Below are positions 30,334 to 63,625 of a stretch of DNA of 64,000 nucleotides, in pieces. The position numbers were made by a program, and so were the translations under genes. The first letter of the stretch is position 1. Each line of letters opens with the position of its first letter. Below the pieces are notes generated by a model. The model was given only the letters and a program-made list of their open reading frames with translations, was not told the origin of the DNA and ran no database searches. The DNA comes from Verrucomicrobiia bacterium. Its GTDB lineage: Bacteria > Verrucomicrobiota > Verrucomicrobiia > Limisphaerales > JADLHS01. The stretch lies in NCBI GenBank assembly GCA_036274115.1, contig DASUGI010000113.1, forward strand, positions 14,211-78,210. The letters are read 5' to 3'.

Positions 30334-31872
30334 TCAGCTCACTCCCATTCCGATCAGGAACTCGATATTGCTGCCGGTTTTTTTGAGTTTGCCGAGCAGC
30401 AGTTCCATCGCTTCCACGGGCGGGACACCAGTCAGCGCCCGGCGCAACAGGACGATCTTGTTGAGTTCGTCCGGATGATAGAGCAATTCCTCTTTCCGCG
30501 TGCCGGAGCGTTCCACGTTGATGGATGGGAAAATGCGCCGATCCACGAGCGCGCGGTCGAGATGGACTTCCATGTTGCCCGTGCCTTTGAACTCTTCAAA
30601 GATGACTTCATCCATGCGTGAGCCCGTGTCCACCAGCGCCGTGGCAATGATGGTGAGCGAGCCGCCTTCCTCGATGTTGCGTGCCGCGCCGAAGAAGCGC
30701 TTGGGCTTGTGCAGCGCGTTGGCATCGACACCGCCGGACAGAATTTTGCCGGAGTGCGGTTGCACGGTGTTGTAGGCGCGGGCGAGGCGCGTAATGGAGT
30801 CGAGCAGAATGACGACGTCGCGCTTGTGCTCGATCATGCGCTTGGCTTTCTCGATGACCATTTCGGCGACCTGCACATGGCGCTCCGGCGGTTCGTCGAA
30901 CGTCGAGGAAATCACTTCCGCGCCGACGCACGTGCGCTCCATGTCCGTGACTTCTTCGGGGCGTTCGTCAATCAACAGGATGAACAGATAGGACTCCGGA
31001 TTGTTTTTCAGGATCGCGTTGGCGAGCTTCTGCATCAGCACCGTTTTGCCGGTGCGCGGCGGTGCGACGATGATGCCGCGCGTGCCTTTGCCGATGGGGC
31101 ACACCAGGTCCAGCACGCGAGTCGATAACTCTTCCTTGCCGGTTTCGAGAATGAAGCGCTTGTTGGGAAACAGTGGCGTCAGGTTCTCGAAATGTGTTTT
31201 GTCCTTCGCTTTGTCCGGCTCTTCGCCATCAACGGCTTCAACTTTGAGCAAAGCGAAAAACTTTTCCTTCTCCTTGGGTGGCCGGATCTGGCCCGCGATC
31301 AGATTGCCGGTCTGCAAATCGAAGCGGCGAATCTGGGAGGGTGAAACGTAAATGTCCTCAGGACAGGGGAGGTAATTGAAACTCTGCGAGCGCAGAAAGC
31401 CAAAGCCTTCCGGCAACACCTCCAGCACACCTTCGGAAAACAGGACGCCAGCACGCTCGGCGTTCTTCTGCAGGATGTGGAAAATGACCTCGTGCTTGCG
31501 CATCGTGCCGAAATTCTCCACGCCGAGGTCCTTCGCCATCTTGTTGAGATCATTCATCTGCATCGCCTGGAGCTTGGCGATGTTCAGTGAATGTGCGATT
31601 TTGTCGCGCTCACCGCGGCGGGATTCGTAGCGCTCCGGACGTTCCGGCGCCGTGGGAACGTCGGGCTCTATGGGCCGCGTTGGCGGTTGCAGCTCGGCTT
31701 CTTCCGCCGGCGCTGGTTGAGGCGCGGGGGCCGCTGCCACGGATTCAGGCTGGGCCGGGGCAGTTGGCGGCGGCGTAAGTGGTGCCGCTTCGGCAGCATC
31801 CAAGGGCAGGTCTGCTCCCTCCTTTGCTTTGGCAGATTTGGTTTTGGCCTTCTTGGTGGCAACTCTTGGCAT
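30334..31872 (-). CDS. rho: Transcription termination factor Rho with N-terminal low-complexity extension
   Basis: [60 protein letters not shown]. Confidence 0.98.
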
Positions 31873-54297: not shown

Positions 54298-56244
54298 ATG
54301 GAAACCGAAAGCAGTGCGGGCCAAACCGGCCCCACTCAGGACAATGCCGATGCTCCCCAACCGGAGCATTCGCACGGAACAAATCGCTGGCTGGTGCTTG
54401 GGCTTGGCGCGCTGGGCGTCGTTTACGGCGACATCGGGACGAGTCCGCTCTACGCTTTGCGCACCTGTTTTTCGTCCAACGGCGGAGTTGCGCCCACGCA
54501 CGACAACGTCCTGGGTGTGCTGTCCCTCATCTTCTGGTCGCTCCTGCTGATTGTGTCGGTGAAATACATCGCCTTCGTGATGCGCGCCGACAATCGCGGT
54601 GAAGGCGGCATTCTTGCCCTGCTCGCGCTGGCCTTCCCCGAACGAGAACAAGCTTCCTCCAGTCGAGCGCACTGGCTGTTAGTGGCGGCCGGCGTATTCG
54701 GCGCTGCGCTGCTTTACGGAGATGGGTTGATCACTCCCGCAATCACTGTGCTCGGCGCCGCCGAAGGATTGGAAGTAGTCACGCCGCTTTTTAAGCCCTA
54801 CGTCGTTCCACTTACCATCCTCATTCTGATCGCGTTGTTCAGCGTGCAACGCATCGGAACGGGTGGCGTCGGGAGAATCTTTGGCTGGGTGATGCTCGCG
54901 TGGTTCATCACTCTTGCCGCGCTCGGTTTGAAACAAATTCTTCGCACCCCGGAAGTCTGGCTGGCAATCAACCCGCTCTACGCGATAAAGTTTTTCCAGG
55001 CGAACGGATTTGCCGGCTTCCATGAACTGGGGGCCGTCTTCCTCGTACTGACCGGGGCGGAGGCGTTATACGCAGACATGGGCCACTTCGGCAAACGTCC
55101 CATCCGTGTGGCATGGTTCACCCTCGTGCTGCCGGCGCTGTTCCTGAATTACCTCGGACAAGGCGCGCTCGTGCTGGCACACCCCGAGGCTGCCAGCAAT
55201 CCGTTTTTCCGGCTCGCACCCTCCTGGACCCTCTATCCGCTGGTCGCGCTGGCTACGGCGGCCGCGGCTATCGCATCGCAAGCGCTTATCACAGGATCTT
55301 TTTCGCTCACGATGCAGGCGATCCAACTTGGCTACGTGCCGCGCATGGCCATCGAACACACCTCATCCTCGGCACGTGGCCAGATCTACATTCCCTGGGT
55401 CAATTGGGGCCTGATGTCTGCGTGCATTGCCATCGTGCTGAGCTTCCGGTCATCCGACAACCTCGCGGCCGCCTACGGCATTGCGGTCGTGATGACCATG
55501 ATCATCACCACACTGATGCTTTTTTTCGCCACGCAAAAGCTGTGGAAATGGACGGTGTGGCAAGCCGGCGTTTTCTGCGGAGTGTTTCTATTTGCGGAAG
55601 TCGCCTTCCTCAGCGCGAACATTTCCAAGGTCACGCATGGCGGCTGGCTGCCACTTGCCGTCGGCGTCTTCGGCTTCACCCTCATGTCCACCTGGAAAAC
55701 CGGGCGCCGACGACTTCGCAATCGTTTGGTCAAAAGCCTGCTCCCCATTGAGGACTTTCTGAAAGACGTCGCCGAGACCAACCCGATTCGCGTCCCCGGC
55801 ACTGCGATTTTCCTGTCGGGCAATCCCGACGGCACACCCGCCGCGCTGACCCACAATTTCAAACACAACAAAGTCCTCCATAAACGCGTTGTGCTGCTGA
55901 CGATCGTTGTCGAGGAAATTCCCTCCGTCGAACCGGAGCGCCGACTCACCATCACGGAACTCGGGCACGATTTCTATCGCGTGATTGGCCGCTACGGGTT
56001 CATGGAAGAACCCGACGCCCTGGCGCTGCTCAAACTGTGCAAGCCTCACGGACTCAATTTCCGCGAAATGGAAACCACCTTTTTCCTCAGCCGCGAAACC
56101 ATCATCCCGTCCGAACGCCGCGGTTTATCGCGCTGGCGCAAGCGGCTCTTCTCTCTCATGGCCCGCAATTCTCAACCCGCCAACGCCTACTTCCGTCTCC
56201 CGCCGAATCGCGTGGTAGAGCTGGGTTTACAGATAGAAATCTAA
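54298..56244 (+). CDS. kup: KUP/HAK/KT potassium uptake permease
   Basis: GVVYGDIGTSPLY, ADNRGEGG, GDGLITPAI, TGAEALYADMGHFG, GQIYIP, TFFLSRET, RVVELG; ATG 54298 chosen because the upstream sequence is riboswitch. Confidence 0.96.
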   Translation: METESSAGQTGPTQDNADAPQPEHSHGTNRWLVLGLGALGVVYGDIGTSPLYALRTCFSSNGGVAPTHDNVLGVLSLIFWSLLLIVSVKYIAFVMRADNRGEGGILALLALAFPEREQASSSRAHWLLVAAGVFGAALLYGDGLITPAITVLGAAEGLEVVTPLFKPYVVPLTILILIALFSVQRIGTGGVGRIFGWVMLAWFITLAALGLKQILRTPEVWLAINPLYAIKFFQANGFAGFHELGAVFLVLTGAEALYADMGHFGKRPIRVAWFTLVLPALFLNYLGQGALVLAHPEAASNPFFRLAPSWTLYPLVALATAAAAIASQALITGSFSLTMQAIQLGYVPRMAIEHTSSSARGQIYIPWVNWGLMSACIAIVLSFRSSDNLAAAYGIAVVMTMIITTLMLFFATQKLWKWTVWQAGVFCGVFLFAEVAFLSANISKVTHGGWLPLAVGVFGFTLMSTWKTGRRRLRNRLVKSLLPIEDFLKDVAETNPIRVPGTAIFLSGNPDGTPAALTHNFKHNKVLHKRVVLLTIVVEEIPSVEPERRLTITELGHDFYRVIGRYGFMEEPDALALLKLCKPHGLNFREMETTFFLSRETIIPSERRGLSRWRKRLFSLMARNSQPANAYFRLPPNRVVELGLQIEI

Positions 56245-56314
56245 GGACGCCTGGTGCGCGCCTTGGCACAACATTAGCATTGAACATTTTCCACTGGTAA
56301 GCATCTTAATCTCC

Positions 56315-56701
56315 GTGAAGTCGCTCAGAACATTGCTGACCTTGCTGCTGGTGGCCGTATGGCCGCTGGCCACGAGTCATTGTAACCTTGAGCAACTGCC
56401 CGGCTTCGAATTTCTCTCCTGCGCAATTGACGCGGATGCTGCCCACGCCGAAAGCGATTGCGAGACTGATAGCTGCGCCTCAATCGAATCAGGTGTCTAT
56501 AAAACGGAGGATAATCAACAAACGGTGCCCACGCCGCCGTCGTTCACGTCCGAATTCCTGACAACGATGCTGCTGGCACAAACAGAACTGGTCAGCACAA
56601 GCATCAACGATTTTGCCCCTGCACCGCCGGAACTCCCAAAGTCCTGGCAATTTTCTTTCCGCACGGCTCTGTCGCCGCGCGCTCCCTCACTCGTTTCGTA
56701 A
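56315..56701 (+). CDS. Cys-containing exported leader protein (DUF2946/CzcI-like) ending in RAPS
   Basis: Signal-like N-terminus, HC..C..HAESDCETDSC, Pro-rich linker, C-terminal WQFSFRTALSPRAPSLVS; first gene of metal efflux operon. Confidence 0.7.
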   Translation: MKSLRTLLTLLLVAVWPLATSHCNLEQLPGFEFLSCAIDADAAHAESDCETDSCASIESGVYKTEDNQQTVPTPPSFTSEFLTTMLLAQTELVSTSINDFAPAPPELPKSWQFSFRTALSPRAPSLVS

Positions 56702-56800
56702 CGCGTCCTTGCCGACGCCTCTCTGATGGTCGCGGTGTGTTCGCACATCGCAAAGTGATTCACCGTAGGTCTTAGCCTGTGTGCTTTGGTCTAATTGATT

Positions 56801-58111
56801 ATGAAACGATTGAACTTTTGGTTGCCGCTTGTGACGACTGTGCTGATCGGCGCGATGACGCCGAACGCAGTGTGTCAGGAGACGAACTCCATTCCGCCCA
56901 CCGCAAGCGTGTCGTTGGACACGCTCGTGACCGAAGCGTTGGAGAAAAATCCTGAACTCAAATTCTATGAAGCGGAATTGGCTGTCGCACGGGCCGGCCG
57001 CAAGAGCGCTGGGTTATGGGCCAACCCGGAAGTGAGCGGCAGCATAGGCCAGAAACGCACCACCGCCGGCGGGCTTTCCGAGGAAGGCCTCGCCTGGTCA
57101 GCCAGCGTGGTGCAACCCTTCGAATGGCCCGGCCGGATGGGCCTGCGCAAAGCAATTGCGAATCGCGACATCGAACTTGCTGAACTGGGCTATCAACGAT
57201 TCAAGGTCGCGCTCGCGTCACGCGTTCGCACGCTCGCGTACGGGCTGTTTGCCGCACAGGAGAAATCCGCCGCCGCCAGCGAAGTGGCCGAACGGTTCAA
57301 GGCGCTCCGCGAGATCCTGATTCAACGCGATCCCGCCGGCCTCACGCCGCTGCTGGAAACCCGTGTCATCGAAGCCACCGAACTCAACGCGCAACGCAAA
57401 GCCACCGAAGCCCAACTCGCCGTCGACTCGGCCTTGCTGGAGTTGAATCAACTTCGCGGCCAGCCCACTGGCACGCGGGTTGTCATCGCCCCATCGCAAC
57501 TGGATTTCCGCCCACTGGAAGAACGCGAGCGCCTGCTTGCGCTTGCACGCACCAACAACTTTGAAATGCGGATGCGCGCCGCCGAACTCGCCCAACAGGG
57601 CTTCCGGGTCGATCTTGCCAGGAACGAACGCTACCCCGCCATCTCTGTTGGTCCGAGCATTTCGGAGGAAAATGCCGGTGATCGTGAGCGGATCATCGGT
57701 GTGGCAGTATCCCTGCCCCTGCCCCTTTGGAATCGCAACAGCGGGAACATCGAAGTCGCTAAAGCACGCCAAACCCAGGCGGAGGTTTCCCTGCAAGTCA
57801 CCGAGCGCGAAATCCAACGGCAAGTCCTCGCCGCCGCATTGACCTACGAAACCAAGTTGCGCGAGATGGCCAAGTGGCGTCCAGACTCCGTGCAGCATTT
57901 CAAGGAAGCCGCCGAACTCGCGGACCGTCACTACCGTCTCGGCGCCGTACCGATTTCCACCTACGTCGAATTGCAGCAGCAATATCTCGAAGCCGTCGAA
58001 AGTTTGCTCGACACCAAACGCGAAGCACTCGCCGCCGCCGCGCAACTCGAAGTGCTCACCGGACTGCCCGAGCCGCTCGCACGCAGCACAGCGGGAGGAG
58101 AATCAAAGTGA
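56801..58111 (+). CDS. TolC-family outer membrane factor (CzcC-like)
   Basis: ALEKNPEL, ANPEV, QPFEWPG, SLPLPLWNRNSGNI, YRLG. Confidence 0.9.
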   Translation: MKRLNFWLPLVTTVLIGAMTPNAVCQETNSIPPTASVSLDTLVTEALEKNPELKFYEAELAVARAGRKSAGLWANPEVSGSIGQKRTTAGGLSEEGLAWSASVVQPFEWPGRMGLRKAIANRDIELAELGYQRFKVALASRVRTLAYGLFAAQEKSAAASEVAERFKALREILIQRDPAGLTPLLETRVIEATELNAQRKATEAQLAVDSALLELNQLRGQPTGTRVVIAPSQLDFRPLEERERLLALARTNNFEMRMRAAELAQQGFRVDLARNERYPAISVGPSISEENAGDRERIIGVAVSLPLPLWNRNSGNIEVAKARQTQAEVSLQVTEREIQRQVLAAALTYETKLREMAKWRPDSVQHFKEAAELADRHYRLGAVPISTYVELQQQYLEAVESLLDTKREALAAAAQLEVLTGLPEPLARSTAGGESK

Positions 58112-58112
58112 G

Positions 58113-58440
58113 CCGGAACGCTCGCCCTCACTCCGGCCCTCTCCCCCAGGAGAGGAGGAAACCCGCTTCCGCCTCACCAGCAGCAAAGCGACAGGATTGC
58201 TCGAGGCTTTGTCTTCCAAATGAGCAAAAGACTGAAGCTGACATCGTCCTTTACGAATCACCCAACCGCATCACGTCACACTGCCTCTCGACGAACCGGA
58301 GCGCCTCCTCTCCCCGTCCCTCTCCTCCATTCGGAATGGAGGAGAGGGTGGCCGGAGGCCCGGAGAAGAGGTGCTCCATTGTTCGAAGGTTCAAAGCGCT
58401 GACCTCGTTTGGGAAAAATCTCCCCCGAGAGGGGCCCGAA
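58113..58440. repeat. Insert with CCCTCTCC..GGAGAGG palindromes (family H) between czcC and czcB
   Basis: CCCTCACTCCGGCCCTCTCCCCCAGGAGAGG (58125-58155), CCCTCTCCTCCATTC-G-GAATGGAGGAGAGGG (58318-58348); AAGTGAG direct repeat at 58106 and 58439. Confidence 0.7.
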
Positions 58441-59214
58441 GTGAGAACGAGCGTTAATCTAATATTGATTGCCTTGCTCCTCATTCTCACTGGTTGTGGC
58501 CACAAGCACGAAGCGGGAGACGGACACAGCCACGACAAGGATGGTCACGGCCATGCGGAAGAATCGCCCTCGGGCGCGTCCTTCAAACCGAACCAGGGTG
58601 TGCTCGTGACCGACGAGACGCGGAAGATTCTCGACCTGCAAACCGCCGAAGTCGCGGAGCAAAAGCTGCCCGCGCAAATCCGTTTCAACCTGCAGGTTTT
58701 CGGCGAAAAGCATCATCACGCCCTCCAGGAGGCCGACCACACCGGATGCGATGTTCACGGCTCGGGATTTCTTCCGCCAGACAAGGTCACTTCCGTTCGC
58801 GCCGGTCAGCCCGTCCAGGTGCAGACCCGCGACAATACTGCGCTAACCGGAGCCGTTCTCGCCGTCGAACCGGCGCTTGCCCTTGGCGAAACTGAAATCA
58901 TCGTCGGCCTCACCAACGCGACTCATAAGGTGAAGCCGGGTGAATTCCTCTCCGCCGTCATCACCCAACCTCGCGACAACACGGTCATGGTCATTCCACG
59001 CTCCGCCCTGCTGCGTACCGCGGAAGGCACCTTTGTTTATACGGTAAACGGCGATGCCTACATGCGGACCGCAGTCAGGATTGGCACCGAAGCCGACGGA
59101 AAACTGGAAATAACTGACGGCCTGTCAGCCGGTGATTCCGTCGTCACCAAACCGGTCGAAACGCTTTGGCTTGTCGAACTCCGCGCCACCAAGGGCGGCG
59201 GGCATTCCCACTAA
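58441..59214 (+). CDS. His-rich, shortened RND adaptor lipoprotein (CzcB-like); alternative in-frame start GTG 58108
   Basis: Lipobox LTGC, HKHEAGDGHSHDKDGHGH, VRAGQPV, VKPGEFL, IPRSALL, VRIG..EITDGLSAGDSVV. Confidence 0.82.
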   Translation: MRTSVNLILIALLLILTGCGHKHEAGDGHSHDKDGHGHAEESPSGASFKPNQGVLVTDETRKILDLQTAEVAEQKLPAQIRFNLQVFGEKHHHALQEADHTGCDVHGSGFLPPDKVTSVRAGQPVQVQTRDNTALTGAVLAVEPALALGETEIIVGLTNATHKVKPGEFLSAVITQPRDNTVMVIPRSALLRTAEGTFVYTVNGDAYMRTAVRIGTEADGKLEITDGLSAGDSVVTKPVETLWLVELRATKGGGHSH

Positions 59215-59815: not shown

Positions 59816-62800
59816 ATGCTCAATCGCCTCCTGGAATTCTCCGTCCGCCAGCGCGTATTCGTGCTGTTGGCGACGTTGGTTCTGATTGGCATTGGCATTT
59901 ACTCCGCGCTCCGGCTGCCGATCGATGCCGTGCCGGACATCACCAACGTGCAGGTGCAGGTGAACACCGTCGTGCCCGCGCTCGCGCCCGAGGAAATTGA
60001 AAAGCTCGTCACCTTTCCGATCGAAAACGAAATGGCCGGCATTCCCGGACTCACCGAACTACGTTCGCTCTCCAAGTTCGGCTTGTCTCAGGTAACGCTG
60101 GTCTTCGAGGAAGGCACGGACATCTATCGCTCCCGCCAACTGGTGAGCGAACGCTTGCAGACGGTTGTCGAAGACTTGCCCGCGGGCCTCACGCCAAAGC
60201 TCGCGCCCATCAGCACGGGCCTGGGCGAAATCTTTTACTACGTCGTGGAGTATGAAGCGAACCTCAATCGCGGCACGCTCTCATTAGCACCGGGCTTCAG
60301 CCCGGTGAATGGCGGCGCGGAATCACCTTCAGCCGCTTCAGCGGCTTCCCGCCCGGATGAAACCGTTGAAACGGTTTCTGACATTGCGCCACAAAACGCC
60401 GGGCTGAAGCCCGGTGCTAATGAAAACCGGATTCCCGCAACCCGCGAAGCCCAGTTGATGGAGCTAAAGCTCATTCACGATTATCAAATCAGGCCGCGTC
60501 TTCGCTCCACCCCCGGCCTTGCCGAAGTCAATTCCTCCGGCGGCTACGAAAAACAAATCGTCATCCAGCCCAATCCCGACAAACTCAAGAGCGTCGGCAT
60601 GTCCTTCAGCGAAATCGCCGACGCCATCGGTGAAAACGTCGAAAACGCCGGCGGCAGCGTCATCCAACTCGGTGGCGAACAGGTCGCCGTGCGCGCCGCG
60701 GGTCGCGTGCAAACGGTTGAGGAGATCGAACAACTACCCTTGAAGTTTGGTTCGCGCGCCACCCCCTTGCGCGTTCGCGACGTCGCGGATGTGACCATCG
60801 GCAAATCCGTTCGCACCGGCGCTTCCACTTACAACGGTGAGGAAGCCGTGCTGGGCGCCGCGTTGATGCTTGCGGGCGAGAACAGCCGGCTGGTTGCGAA
60901 CGCCGTGGACGCCAAGCTCAAGGAGATTCAGCCGAAGCTTCCTCCCGGCGTGAAAATCATCCCGGTTTACGACCGCACCGTGCTGGTGGACCGCACGATT
61001 CGCACCGTGGAAACGAGTTTGTTTGAAGGCGCCATTCTCGTCGTGGCCGTCCTGCTCATCATGCTCGGCAACTGGCGCGCCGCGCTCATCGTGGCGCTGG
61101 CAATTCCCCTTTCCCTTCTGTTCGCCATGACCGGCATGGTGCAAGGTCGCATCTCCGGCAACCTCATGAGCCTTGGCGCAATCGACTTCGGCCTCATCAT
61201 TGATGGCGCGGTGGTGATGGTGGAGAACATCATCCGGCATCTCGGCGAGAAGCAGCACAAACTCGGACGCCGCCTCACTCCCACGGAACGAGCGCACGAA
61301 GTGCTCATTTCCGCGAAGGAAGTCGCCAGCCCGATGTTCTTCGGCGTGGTCATCATCACTGTGGTTTACTTTCCCATCCTCGCGCTCACGGGCATCGAAG
61401 GAAAAATGTTCAAGCCGATGGCTATAACGGTCATCTTCGCGTTGGTCGGCGCGCTGGCCTTGTCGCTAACGCTCATGCCGGCGCTCTGCTCCTATTTTCT
61501 CGGCGGCAACATCAAGGAGGAAGACAGCTTCCTCGTGAAGTTCGCCAAGCGACTCTATGCCCCCACGCTAAATTACGTAATGCATCACCGCTGGCCGGTC
61601 TCTGGCGGCGCGGTCGGACTGCTGGTTCTTGCCGGATTTCTTTTCACCCGCCTTGGCGCTGAGTTCGTACCGCAACTGGATGAAGGCTCTTTCGCCACGC
61701 ACATGATTCGCACCACCAGCATCGGCATTGACGCCAGCGTGGACATGCAAAAGCGCGGCGAGAAGGTGCTCTTGGAGAAATTCCTGGAGGTCGACTACAC
61801 GTTCAGTCGTCTCGGTACCGCCGAAGTCGCCACTGACCCGATGGGCGTCAACGTTGCGGACACTTACATCATGTTCAAGCCGCCCGAGACGTGGCGGAAG
61901 ATTGATGGCCGCACTGCCACCAAAGATCAACTCGCCAATCTCATGGCTGAGGAACTCGGCAAGCACGTCCCTGGCGAAGCGCATTTGTTCAGTCAACCCA
62001 TCGAAATGCGCTTCAACGAAATTCTCGAAGGCACCCGCGCCGACATCGCGGTGAAAGTGTTCGGCGAAGACTTCGCCGAAATCGAACGGATCGCCAGCGA
62101 AGCCCGCGAGATCCTGGAGAAGATTCCCGGCGCAGCCGACGTGGAATTCGACGCCCTTGGCAAATCACCCTTGCTCGAAATCATTCCCAAGCGCGAGGCC
62201 ATGAGCAAATACAACCTGCACGCGGCTGAGTTGAATCGCGTGGTCAACACTGCACTCGCCGGTCAGGAAGTGGGCAAGCTCATTGACGGCAACCGCCGTT
62301 TCGACATCGTCGTGCGGCTGAGTGAAGACCTGCGCGAACAGATGGACGAACTCAAGCGTCTGCCCGTACGCGTGGACGATGGCGGCTTGCTCACGCTCGG
62401 CCAGATCGCGGACTTCAAAGTCTCCGAACAGGTCGCCGCCATCACGCGAGAATTCGGTCAACGCCGCGCGGCCATCATGATCAACCTGCGCGGGCGCGAC
62501 GTGGAAAGCTTCGTCCTCGAAGCTCAGCAAAAGATTGCTCAAATCAAACTACCCGAGGGCTACTCCATCGAGTTCGGTGGTCAGTTCAAGAACTTGCAGG
62601 AAGCTCGCGCCCGACTCTCCATCGTCGTACCGGTCGCACTCGCGCTGATCTTCGTGCTCGTGTTCATGGCCCTTCACAGTTTGCGCCAAACGCTGCTGGT
62701 TTATACCGGCATTCCCCTGGCCGTGACGGGCGGCGTGTTTGCGTTGTGGGCGCGTGGACTGCCCTTCAGCATTTCCGCGGGCATCGGCTTCATCGCGCTT

Positions 62801-63097
62801 TCCGGCGTCGCCGTGTTGAACGGGTTGATGATGATTTCCTACTTCAACCTGCTGCGCGAACAAGGCCGCGATGTGACCACCAGCGTTCGTGAAGGCGCGA
62901 TGACCCGATTGCGCCCCGTGCTGATGACTGCCTTGGTTGCCTCGCTGGGTTTCGTTCCGATGGCGATTGCCACTGGCGCCGGCGCGGAAGTGCAACGCCC
63001 GCTGGCCACCGTCGTCATTGGCGGCATCCTGAGCTCCACTTTCCTCACCCTCGTTTTGCTCCCGACGCTTTACGAGTGGTTGGAGCGAAATCGGTAG
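59816..63097 (+). CDS. czcA: CusA/CzcA heavy-metal efflux RND permease with in-frame palindromic insertion
   Basis: LPIDAVPDITNVQVQ, GLGEI, SLGAIDFGLIIDGAVVMVEN, RLRPVLMTA, QRPLATVVIGG. Confidence 0.93.
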   Translation: MLNRLLEFSVRQRVFVLLATLVLIGIGIYSALRLPIDAVPDITNVQVQVNTVVPALAPEEIEKLVTFPIENEMAGIPGLTELRSLSKFGLSQVTLVFEEGTDIYRSRQLVSERLQTVVEDLPAGLTPKLAPISTGLGEIFYYVVEYEANLNRGTLSLAPGFSPVNGGAESPSAASAASRPDETVETVSDIAPQNAGLKPGANENRIPATREAQLMELKLIHDYQIRPRLRSTPGLAEVNSSGGYEKQIVIQPNPDKLKSVGMSFSEIADAIGENVENAGGSVIQLGGEQVAVRAAGRVQTVEEIEQLPLKFGSRATPLRVRDVADVTIGKSVRTGASTYNGEEAVLGAALMLAGENSRLVANAVDAKLKEIQPKLPPGVKIIPVYDRTVLVDRTIRTVETSLFEGAILVVAVLLIMLGNWRAALIVALAIPLSLLFAMTGMVQGRISGNLMSLGAIDFGLIIDGAVVMVENIIRHLGEKQHKLGRRLTPTERAHEVLISAKEVASPMFFGVVIITVVYFPILALTGIEGKMFKPMAITVIFALVGALALSLTLMPALCSYFLGGNIKEEDSFLVKFAKRLYAPTLNYVMHHRWPVSGGAVGLLVLAGFLFTRLGAEFVPQLDEGSFATHMIRTTSIGIDASVDMQKRGEKVLLEKFLEVDYTFSRLGTAEVATDPMGVNVADTYIMFKPPETWRKIDGRTATKDQLANLMAEELGKHVPGEAHLFSQPIEMRFNEILEGTRADIAVKVFGEDFAEIERIASEAREILEKIPGAADVEFDALGKSPLLEIIPKREAMSKYNLHAAELNRVVNTALAGQEVGKLIDGNRRFDIVVRLSEDLREQMDELKRLPVRVDDGGLLTLGQIADFKVSEQVAAITREFGQRRAAIMINLRGRDVESFVLEAQQKIAQIKLPEGYSIEFGGQFKNLQEARARLSIVVPVALALIFVLVFMALHSLRQTLLVYTGIPLAVTGGVFALWARGLPFSISAGIGFIALSGVAVLNGLMMISYFNLLREQGRDVTTSVREGAMTRLRPVLMTALVASLGFVPMAIATGAGAEVQRPLATVVIGGILSSTFLTLVLLPTLYEWLERNR
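60281..60423. repeat. 143-bp palindromic element (family G) inside czcA
   Basis: 25-bp perfect terminal inverted repeats TCATTAGCACCGGGCTTCAGCCCGG; inner hairpins AGCCGCTTCAGCGGCT and AAACCGTTGAAACGGTTT. Confidence 0.9.
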
Positions 63098-63168: not shown

Positions 63169-63625
63169 ATGAAATCCATCAAACTATTCACCCTCGCCGT
63201 CGCAGTGTGCGCCACCCTCGCATTGCCGGCCCTCGCCCAGGAAAACCACGGTCATTCACACGTTGCCACTCCCAAAGGCGGACGCGCCCTCGACAAAACC
63301 TCGCCGCTCGCTGAGTTGGTCATCGAGAAGGACCGCACCGTTACCATCAACTTTTACATCGCGGACACGAAACCCGTCGCCGTCACCACGCAGACCGTCA
63401 CCCTCATCGCCGACGCAAAGAGCGGCAAACAAACCCTTGAGTTTGAGAAGAAGGGTGACCCGTTGGCGAGCAAGACCAAGCTGCCCGAAGGCGACGGGTA
63501 CAATCTGGTGGTGCAATTCAAAACAAACCGCCGAAGCCAAGCCACAGAACTTCCGCTTCAAGCTCGACCTCCGCACCTGTGGCGAATGCAAGCGCGCGGA
63601 ATACGCCTGCGCCTGCCATCACTGA
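63169..63625 (+). pseudogene. Frameshifted periplasmic His/Cys-rich putative metal-binding protein
   Basis: Signal peptide + HGHSH..PKGGR; removing one A from the A4 run at 63520-63523 joins ..VVQFK to QTAEAKPQNFRFKLDLRTCGECKRAEYACACHH*. Confidence 0.7.

Follow-up and report, generated by a model that had tools for sequence, protein, structure and literature searches.

Introduction

Metal-sensing arrest leaders are known from two Proteobacteria copper systems, CruR and CutF. Stalling on CutF is proposed to melt an RNA structure over the downstream initiation site (PMC9973294; bioRxiv 2025.02.05.636593, both in the parts available to us), and CutF-like genes often precede OEP (CusC/CzcC) genes (PMC9973294, in part). 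Since such genes ahead of CzcC-type genes are already in print, the class is known. Stalling of CruR/DUF2946 leaders is shown in PMC12992588. A genome-wide arrest survey covered RAPP and RGPP, and the word RAPS does not occur in the available part of PMC12992588. Among the RAP arrest peptides, ApcA stalls with Pro in the P site, and its homologues carry Gly or Ser in the A site (PMC7897499, in part). RAPS is one of the motifs used in the search for RQH peptides (PMC10987492, in part). The same source states that RAPP-like motifs in ordinary proteins mostly do not stall and that upstream residues matter.

We analyzed a stretch of 64,000 nucleotides from a Verrucomicrobiia bacterium, hereafter the window, in which an earlier note had singled out a small ORF ahead of czcC as a candidate metal-sensing, export-coupled arrest leader. 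Our literature search, mostly at the level of listed records, returned no description of a RAPS leader family or of an anti-AUG helix. Verrucomicrobia are not named in those supplements of PMC9973294 that were examined, and its full protein list may be held elsewhere.

A leader ORF heads a czcCBA-like locus

The 128-aa ORF proved to be real, with 129 homologues at E≤0.001 in a single-sequence search, and the gene order around it is kup, leader, czcC, czcB-like adaptor, UPF0114 gene and CusA/CzcA-family pump (Table 1). The C-terminal end of the leader is RTALSPRAPSLVS. The gap to czcC, previously given as 100 bp, was close to the true value; the exact czcC ATG lies 99 nt past the leader stop. 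A paralogue check found a single leader copy in its own genome. The leader matched no family in Pfam (E≤1) or NCBIfam, and a search of 56200-56900 against Rfam gave no match at E≤1. One RNA sequencing run covers just 57131-57326, a piece of czcC, and is silent on expression and start site; two further sequencing runs match parts of the leader and the czcC start without a differing letter.

Table 1. Features of the leader locus in window coordinates.
Feature	Position	Strand	Basis
-35-like hexamer TTGAAC	56280..56285	+	TTG at -39..-33 of the start codon across homologues
-10-like hexamer CATCTT	56302..56307	+	ends 7 nt before GTG
Leader ORF, 128 aa	56315-56701	+	GTG start; ORF list and homologue search
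Signal-peptide-like residues 1-21	56315..56377	+	K2/R5, then hydrophobic core
Putative Cys/His/acidic metal site H22, C23, C36, H44, C49-x4-C54	56378..56476	+	conservation
Putative arrest sequence W111-Q-F-S-F-R-T-A-L-S-P-R-A-P-S125	56645..56689	+	invariant residues, synonymous variation
RAPS codons; predicted P-site codon Pro124 at 56684	56678-56689	+	stall register by analogy with ApcA
Anti-start strand: last codons L-V-S and stop	56687..56701	+	core 56691-56701 pairs with 56809-56799
Intergenic hairpin 1, 5 bp here	56703..56718	+	family: 88% of cells paired, 4/5 pairs with two-sided change
Intergenic hairpin 2, 8 bp	56732..56751	+	family: 82.5% paired, 7/8 pairs with two-sided change
czcC start region, ATG 56801, predicted hidden by leader tail, without Shine-Dalgarno	56799..56813	+	folding
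czcC-like outer-membrane factor	56801..58111	+	Pfam OEP E 6.5e-40
Short czcB-like periplasmic adaptor (start approximate)	58435..59214	+	TIGR01730 E 2e-18, TIGR00999 E 4e-15, both under cut-off
czcA-like heavy-metal RND pump, DFGxIxD transmembrane motif	59816..63097	+	TIGR00914 1279 bits, above cut-off; CusA/CzcA family

Reading of the ORFs recognised no regulator in the operon or in the next 15 kb, in line with the earlier claim of an operon without a metal-responsive regulator, and no CzcR/CusR-type response regulator scored over cut-off in its own, 87%-complete genome.

The UPF0114 gene (YqhA, TIGR00645; 59216-59806) lies between czcB and czcA and is also found within or adjoining the operon at two homologous loci (L047, L052). 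The czcB-like adaptor has only about 260 aa and a His-rich N-terminal part. This short form is common to many homologous loci, and elsewhere czcC runs directly into czcA. Behind czcA, a small exported His/Cys-rich gene (63169-63625) is split over two frames near 63520, by either a frameshift or an assembly error; its homologues are intact at L043 and L053 (73% identical). The window also carries a rho gene (about 30349-31584, minus strand), and the genome holds a second, partial rho match.

The proposed promoter, TTGAAC and CATCTT 16 bp apart with 7 nt to the GTG, has the hexamers and spacing described, and its TTG is conserved in the family: 156 of 162 homologous loci have it in the expected range, compared with 21 of 162 in a control window. 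An xAxxxT element at 16-18 nt spacing was present in 79 of the 162 loci, most commonly 7 nt from the start codon (49 of 83 sites). A consensus promoter scan found none at the leader. The start codon is GTG in 131, ATG in 22 and TTG in 11 of 164 homologues. Because the -10-like hexamer ends 7 nt before the start codon, transcription would begin at the GUG, and the leader mRNA looks leaderless.

The leader family is tied to heavy-metal efflux genes

We aligned the 120 listed matches of the single-sequence search and built a leader profile from 55 members, which gave 660 matches among 7,988 proteins scored. By this profile the leader is present in 175 of 301 genomes of the same order. A survey of 401 genomes across the phylum found it in 35, of which 30 belong to one family of another order. 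Leader records are mostly titled Verrucomicrobiota, and a few metagenome-assembled records bear other names. Judged from these searches, the leader is a Verrucomicrobiota family without a Pfam name, and relatives beyond the phylum are possible.

From 204 loci we kept 191, dropping 8 with less than 200 nt downstream, 4 with an ATG outside 75-145 nt and 1 without an ATG ORF; 170 were left after removal of duplicates. The reported position ahead of efflux genes was borne out across the family. Among the first 95 loci, 77 have a czcC-like tblastn match within 700 nt downstream and 4 a czcB-like one. In 4 of the remaining 14 a czcC match lies further along, and the six of these exceptions that were scanned gave three OEP, one adaptor, one weak response-regulator match and one protein without family. 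Conversely, where loci were picked by czcC alone, the leader stands directly upstream in 26 of 29 (RAPS in 25, RSPS in 1). A czcC search in 81 genomes of the family labelled f6 gave no match and is uninformative. The DFGxIxD motif, which we take as the mark of CzcA-type divalent-metal pumps, is present in 29 of the 30 loci having that part in range. The nearest upstream ORF at 51 loci was never of the MerR, ArsR, Fur or two-component type (AraC and LysR once each).

Several loci depart from this layout. At L020, L021, L022, L025 and L027 the gene directly before the leader encodes a multicopper oxidase, hinting at a copper-linked subgroup. At L063 a 201-aa protein with a weak response-regulator receiver match follows the leader in place of czcC. 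Genomes G442, G446, G588, G611 and G672 hold 4-6 leader copies each, some about 10 kb apart, suggesting several metal-efflux operons each with its own leader. At L230 the ORF ahead of a close czcC homologue has RAPPLA at its end, 124 nt from the ATG, and is not matched by the leader profile; this is a different leader in the same slot.

RAPS is conserved at the peptide level

The conserved parts of the 120 listed homologues are a hydrophobic N-terminus, a Cys/His cluster and the end PPELxxxWQFSFRTAL[PS]PRAPS[FL][VA]S, and the middle is variable. RAPS is found in 118 of them, with W111, F113, R116, A118, R122, P124 and S125 invariant. At the 170 unique loci RAPS occurs in 161 and RAPP in none, and its Arg is written with five codons, its Ala with four and its Pro with four. 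Since the motif is kept while its codons vary, selection acts on the peptide, and the conservation that the earlier note had asked to see for RAP[PS] is there. Many loci came from pattern scans that include RAPS. As these scans required the motif, its fair test is given by the profile-picked and czcC-picked loci, the pattern-free sets being the 301-genome order survey, the 401-genome phylum survey and the 29 czcC-picked loci.

The view of RAPS as a variant of a known stalling motif agrees with its natural occurrence among ApcA homologues and with the G105S form of ApcA, which arrests at wild-type level (PMC7897499, in part). The invariant W-x-F-x-x-R-x-A upstream of RAPS would fit a tunnel segment. 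Consecutive prolines are absent from the last 15 residues here (SPRAPS); most homologues read LPPRAPS, with Pro at position 120 in 68 of the 120 listed.

Membership in DUF2946 (PF11162), the family of the copper-responsive leader CruR, did not hold up. The profile search gave no match for the protein at E≤1. Four of the 55 profile members matched (best E 0.062), none at the gathering cut-off, and in the reverse direction true DUF2946 members of the same order scored at most 7.8 bits on the leader profile.

The N-terminus carries a hydrophobic core and a candidate metal site

The signal-like N-terminus was confirmed, by hydropathy rather than by SignalP: the peak 11-residue value is 2.45 in the leader and at least 1.95 in all 164 homologues. 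The AlphaFold model contains a confident helix at residues 2-20 only and no folded domain (pLDDT 63, pTM 0.29). Cleavage after A-T-S would expose His-Cys at the mature N-terminus.

The Cys/His/acidic cluster is present and conserved, its residues being more widely spaced than had been drawn. C23, C36, C49 and C54 are kept in 115, 116, 113 and 116 of the 120 listed homologues, respectively. A Cx3-5C match is found in 146 of 164 leaders, as Cx4C in 110, Cx3C in 20 and Cx5C in 16. The cluster lies 64-70 residues before the RAPS Arg in 135 of the 164, a spacing that should suffice for tunnel and translocon. His-rich, nearly Cys-free leaders (L039, L044, L061; proteins P0098, P0104, P0113) keep the RAPS tail, suggesting a switch of metal specificity. 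Because His-rich stretches take the place of Cys in some members, metal binding is favoured over disulfides.

The leader tail is complementary to the czcC start

The last 11 nt of the leader are complementary to 56799-56809, across the czcC AUG. Folding from the predicted start site gave pair probabilities of 0.89-1.0 for ten pairs and 0.51 for the last, and the helix is predicted with P of about 0.99 at the window locus. According to the same calculations, the three nucleotides of the AUG are unpaired in the free RNA with probabilities of 0.01, 0.02 and 0.00, and with a ribosome footprint at Pro124 with 0.50, 0.98 and 0.82; a footprint 8 codons earlier leaves AUG pairing unchanged. Two footprints around Pro124 were modelled, -12 to +15 and the shorter -12 to +9, and the AUG opens with both. 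With the footprint, the computed cost of opening the initiation region fell from 10.9 to 5.6 kcal/mol at the window locus and on average from 8.8 to 6.1 kcal/mol at 143 main-group loci. The drop exceeded 1 kcal/mol in 88 of these 143, compared with 40 for the earlier footprint. This predicted helix would fill a gap in the earlier reading, namely how stalling reaches czcC.

Across the main group the helix has P>0.5 at 77 of 143 loci, all within the 115 that end in Ser-stop, compared with 1 of 150 control gene pairs and 0 of 56 Met-Lys-start pairs from the leader's own genome. When the tail was recoded synonymously, P>0.5 was kept in only 21 of 150 variants. Codon choice is narrow at the very end of the leader. 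In 114 Ser-stop leaders the penultimate codon is GTT for 50 of 51 Val and GCT for 46 of 48 Ala, whereas in the bodies of the same leaders GTT makes up 29% of Val and GCT 22% of Ala codons; the last Ser is TCN in 113 of 114. The conserved V/A-S-stop end could be explained as an RNA signal rather than a protein one. Loci picked by czcC gave P>0.5 in 11 of 25, and at least 8 of the 11 pairs in 19 of 25.

A Shine-Dalgarno-like word precedes the downstream start at 3 of 170 loci and is found at 28 of 302 control genes of the leader's own genome, about background; low use of Shine-Dalgarno sequences is described for several Verrucomicrobiota (PMC10783764, in part). The helix may depend on the two conserved intergenic hairpins, which would draw its ends together.

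Other RNA features were considered and set aside. Only 3% of the main group shows an alternative register in which the tail pairs with the -15..-3 region. As for hairpin 1 as a general intrinsic terminator, at least 5 T in the next 9 nt were found in 9/115, 4/28 and 3/27 loci; the terminator-like hits of a sequence scan lay on the opposite strand and did not exceed chance. Folding of the whole region gave weak z-scores (-1.72 and +0.67).

Covariation and limits of the helix

Cognate tails and starts paired better than swapped partners in 31 vs 12 of 78 edge-disjoint tree pairs (p=0.005), and none of 10 slid registers was significant in this test. The Ser-stop group gave 21 vs 6. The helix alignment of 49 rows (48 of 58 eligible loci and the window) has two-sided changes in 5 of 11 pairs and 86% of cells paired. 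In the same alignment the three helices jointly exceed 500/500 shuffles and 6/6 slides, a shuffle result that leans in the helix's favour because the structure was drawn from the same sequences. At one of the helix pairs, czcC codon 2 tends to be AAA where the tail has U and AAG where it has C (counts 41, 17, 7 and 40, among kin that are non-independent).

Covariation weakened under stricter tests. An energy version gave p=0.049. The later-fetched 76 loci alone gave 15 vs 11 (p=0.56), the helix having first been spotted in the first 95. With a tree from the downstream protein the result was 15 vs 6 (p=0.08), and register +3 gave 14 vs 5. Single-column covariation on supported branches was not significant, and RNAalifold returned 0 consensus pairs for the gappy 49-row alignment. 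As an isolated, A-U rich duplex, the tail pairs no more strongly with the start than with other czcC 20-mers.

The helix was found in none of the 28 main-group leaders without terminal Ser and in 2 of 27 of the L067-L095 group. Since it is missing there, the family probably has more than one output. The L067-L095 loci, mostly from one family in another order, and L051 lack the AUG helix and have a strong shared post-stop hairpin. In 13 of the 27, hairpin 1 begins inside the footprint or the last codons, and a U tract is rare.

A related arrangement was seen at L207. On its reverse strand (ORF at 1350-1761 when the locus is reversed), a true member of DUF2946, scoring over cut-off, ends in RAPPVAFILG. 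Its tail holds 11 nt that are complementary to a segment with an ATG about 70 nt further downstream, and this segment lies 16 nt ahead of where the next gene probably starts. This is possibly the same tail-masking in another leader family.

Discussion

We propose that the ORF is a cis-acting arrest leader whose tail hides the czcC AUG, that a stall at R-A-P/S opens it and that metal probably prolongs the stall, and we give this reading a probability of about 0.55. A sigma-70-type promoter would start the mRNA at the GUG, and the signal peptide would engage Sec while translation runs. The ribosome would then stall with Pro124 in the P site and Ser125 in the A site, aided by WQFxxRxA in the tunnel. 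In the normal state, export pulling or folding would free the stall, translation would terminate and the helix would re-form. Binding of periplasmic Zn, Co, Cd or Ni (or, in some subgroups, Cu) some 68 residues before the arrest point would prolong the stall, so that the AUG stays open and czcCBA is translated. With an efflux pump as the target and a stall that would open the czcC AUG, metal is expected to lengthen the stall, as proposed for CutF and in contrast to CruR. A bolder version has a slightly less than even chance in our view: a phylum-specific module of bacteria that make no use of Shine-Dalgarno sequences, in which a leaderless, secreted RAPS peptide senses periplasmic Zn, Co or Cd across the membrane and its terminal Ser and stop codons serve as an anti-AUG strand co-evolving with the first czcC codons, a single stalled ribosome then freeing the AUG.

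The same helix could serve an arrest leader whose signal is Sec pulling or the state of periplasmic disulfides, with metals acting only indirectly. RAP motifs are best known as export monitors (PMC10987492, in part), the four conserved Cys could make two disulfides, and the CutF model itself invokes disulfides (bioRxiv 2025.02.05.636593, in part). We consider this improbable, as the family goes with heavy-metal RND operons rather than with sec or dsb genes, and the one-Cys, His-rich members L039, L044 and L061 keep both tail and place. The output might also be transcriptional as in CruR, the stalled ribosome shielding the C-rich leader end from Rho while polymerase pauses at the hairpins. Since Rho is encoded in the genome, inside the window itself, a layer of the CruR kind is possible. 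The end of the leader is rich in pyrimidines, two conserved intergenic hairpins follow it, about 40% of loci have no predicted AUG helix, and hairpin 1 starts inside the footprint in 13 of the 27 loci of the L067-L095 group. The rarity of a U tract after hairpin 1 (9/115) speaks against intrinsic termination, not against Rho. A Rho-based output would, however, leave the codon choice and the register-specific complementarity to the AUG unexplained, and as a full account we rate it a shade more improbable still.

Two further readings do without a regulatory stall. Ribosomes finishing the leader could open the helix and perhaps re-initiate on czcC, RAPS being a short pause and control lying at the promoter. 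The stop codon does pair with nucleotides at and before the AUG, the footprint of a terminating ribosome also opens the region (positions read 3 nt off), and trans-acting regulators elsewhere in the genome are possible. Plain coupling of this kind has no need of an invariant 15-residue tunnel segment, nor of a Cys/His cluster at near-fixed spacing (64-70 residues, 135/164), and we think it distinctly improbable. Finally, the product could be a periplasmic protein acting in trans on the pump, with its C-terminus as a binding motif. Like czcI, the gene stands before czcC; czcI2 is leaderless, and CzcI quenches CzcCBA (PMC10127602, in part). Against this, CzcI lacks a C-terminal proline motif (PMC9973294, in part), the model of the leader predicts no folded domain (pLDDT 63, pTM 0.29), tblastn gave 0 matches in 72,556 plasmids, and the constraint on the tail acts on nucleotides. 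A role of this kind appears very improbable.

If the bolder version is true, the CzcCBA pump here would be the first one controlled by an arrest peptide, and the DUF2946 leaders of the phylum may do likewise (L207). The leader family would carry the principle to divalent-metal RND efflux in a phylum abundant in soil and freshwater. It may also answer how an arrest peptide can switch a gene on where there is no Shine-Dalgarno sequence to hide. Because the mechanism is specified to the base pair, it is directly testable by synonymous and compensatory changes.

Comparison with known systems

The language-model look-alike of the leader, DUF6769 (PF20558) of Bacteroidota, scored 0.96 with 140/256 features shared; its profile matches 1 of 55 leader members at E 0.23, and we treat it as a lead only. 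The Atlas structure rows all had TM<0.35. CzcI and CzcI2 of Cupriavidus metallidurans are likewise small exported gene products encoded directly before czcC, czcI2 being leaderless (PMC10127602, in part). As far as the available descriptions go, CzcI has no C-terminal proline motif and is a periplasmic pump quencher, whereas the leader has an invariant RAPS.

CruR/DUF2946 and the leader are both first genes of metal-homeostasis operons with an export signal, assigned here by hydropathy (PMC9426467, in part). In both, the spacing between a Cys motif and a RAP motif placed three residues before the stop is conserved. In what the sources at hand describe, CruR has CXXC, RAPP and 45 residues between them; the leader has Cx4C (110/146), RAPS and about 68 residues. 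CruR acts via Rho and switches uptake off, whereas the leader is proposed to switch efflux on.

With the ApcA/RQH RAP arrest peptides and SecM the leader shares R-A-P and a small A-site residue near the C-terminus, and an N-terminal localisation signal (PMC7897499, PMC10987492, both in part). There the stall opens a downstream RNA structure, and the same is predicted here. In the portions of these papers available to us, those peptides precede yidC, secA or secDF and serve as export monitors, whereas the leader heads czcCBA. It differs from ApcA and RQH in its own metal-type cluster and its own upstream segment WQFxxRxAL.

CutF of Rhodobacter capsulatus and the leader are both small and Sec-exported, with a Cys metal site (putative here) and a C-terminal stall motif (PMC9973294, in part). 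With 128 aa, a signal-like N-terminus and a 99-nt gap, the leader falls within the CutF-like rules given in that part of the source (<150 aa, signal peptide, same-strand neighbour at ≤1000 nt). A hidden downstream Shine-Dalgarno, a further mark of CutF-like genes, is missing here, and the predicted helix hides the AUG instead. CutF stalls at an EF-P-sensitive PPP, whereas the leader has RAPS without consecutive prolines at the stall. CutF hides the cutO Shine-Dalgarno in a stem-loop, whereas the pairing predicted here joins tail and AUG across about 100 nt. By analogy, our best reading is that the leader would work like CutF and SecM.
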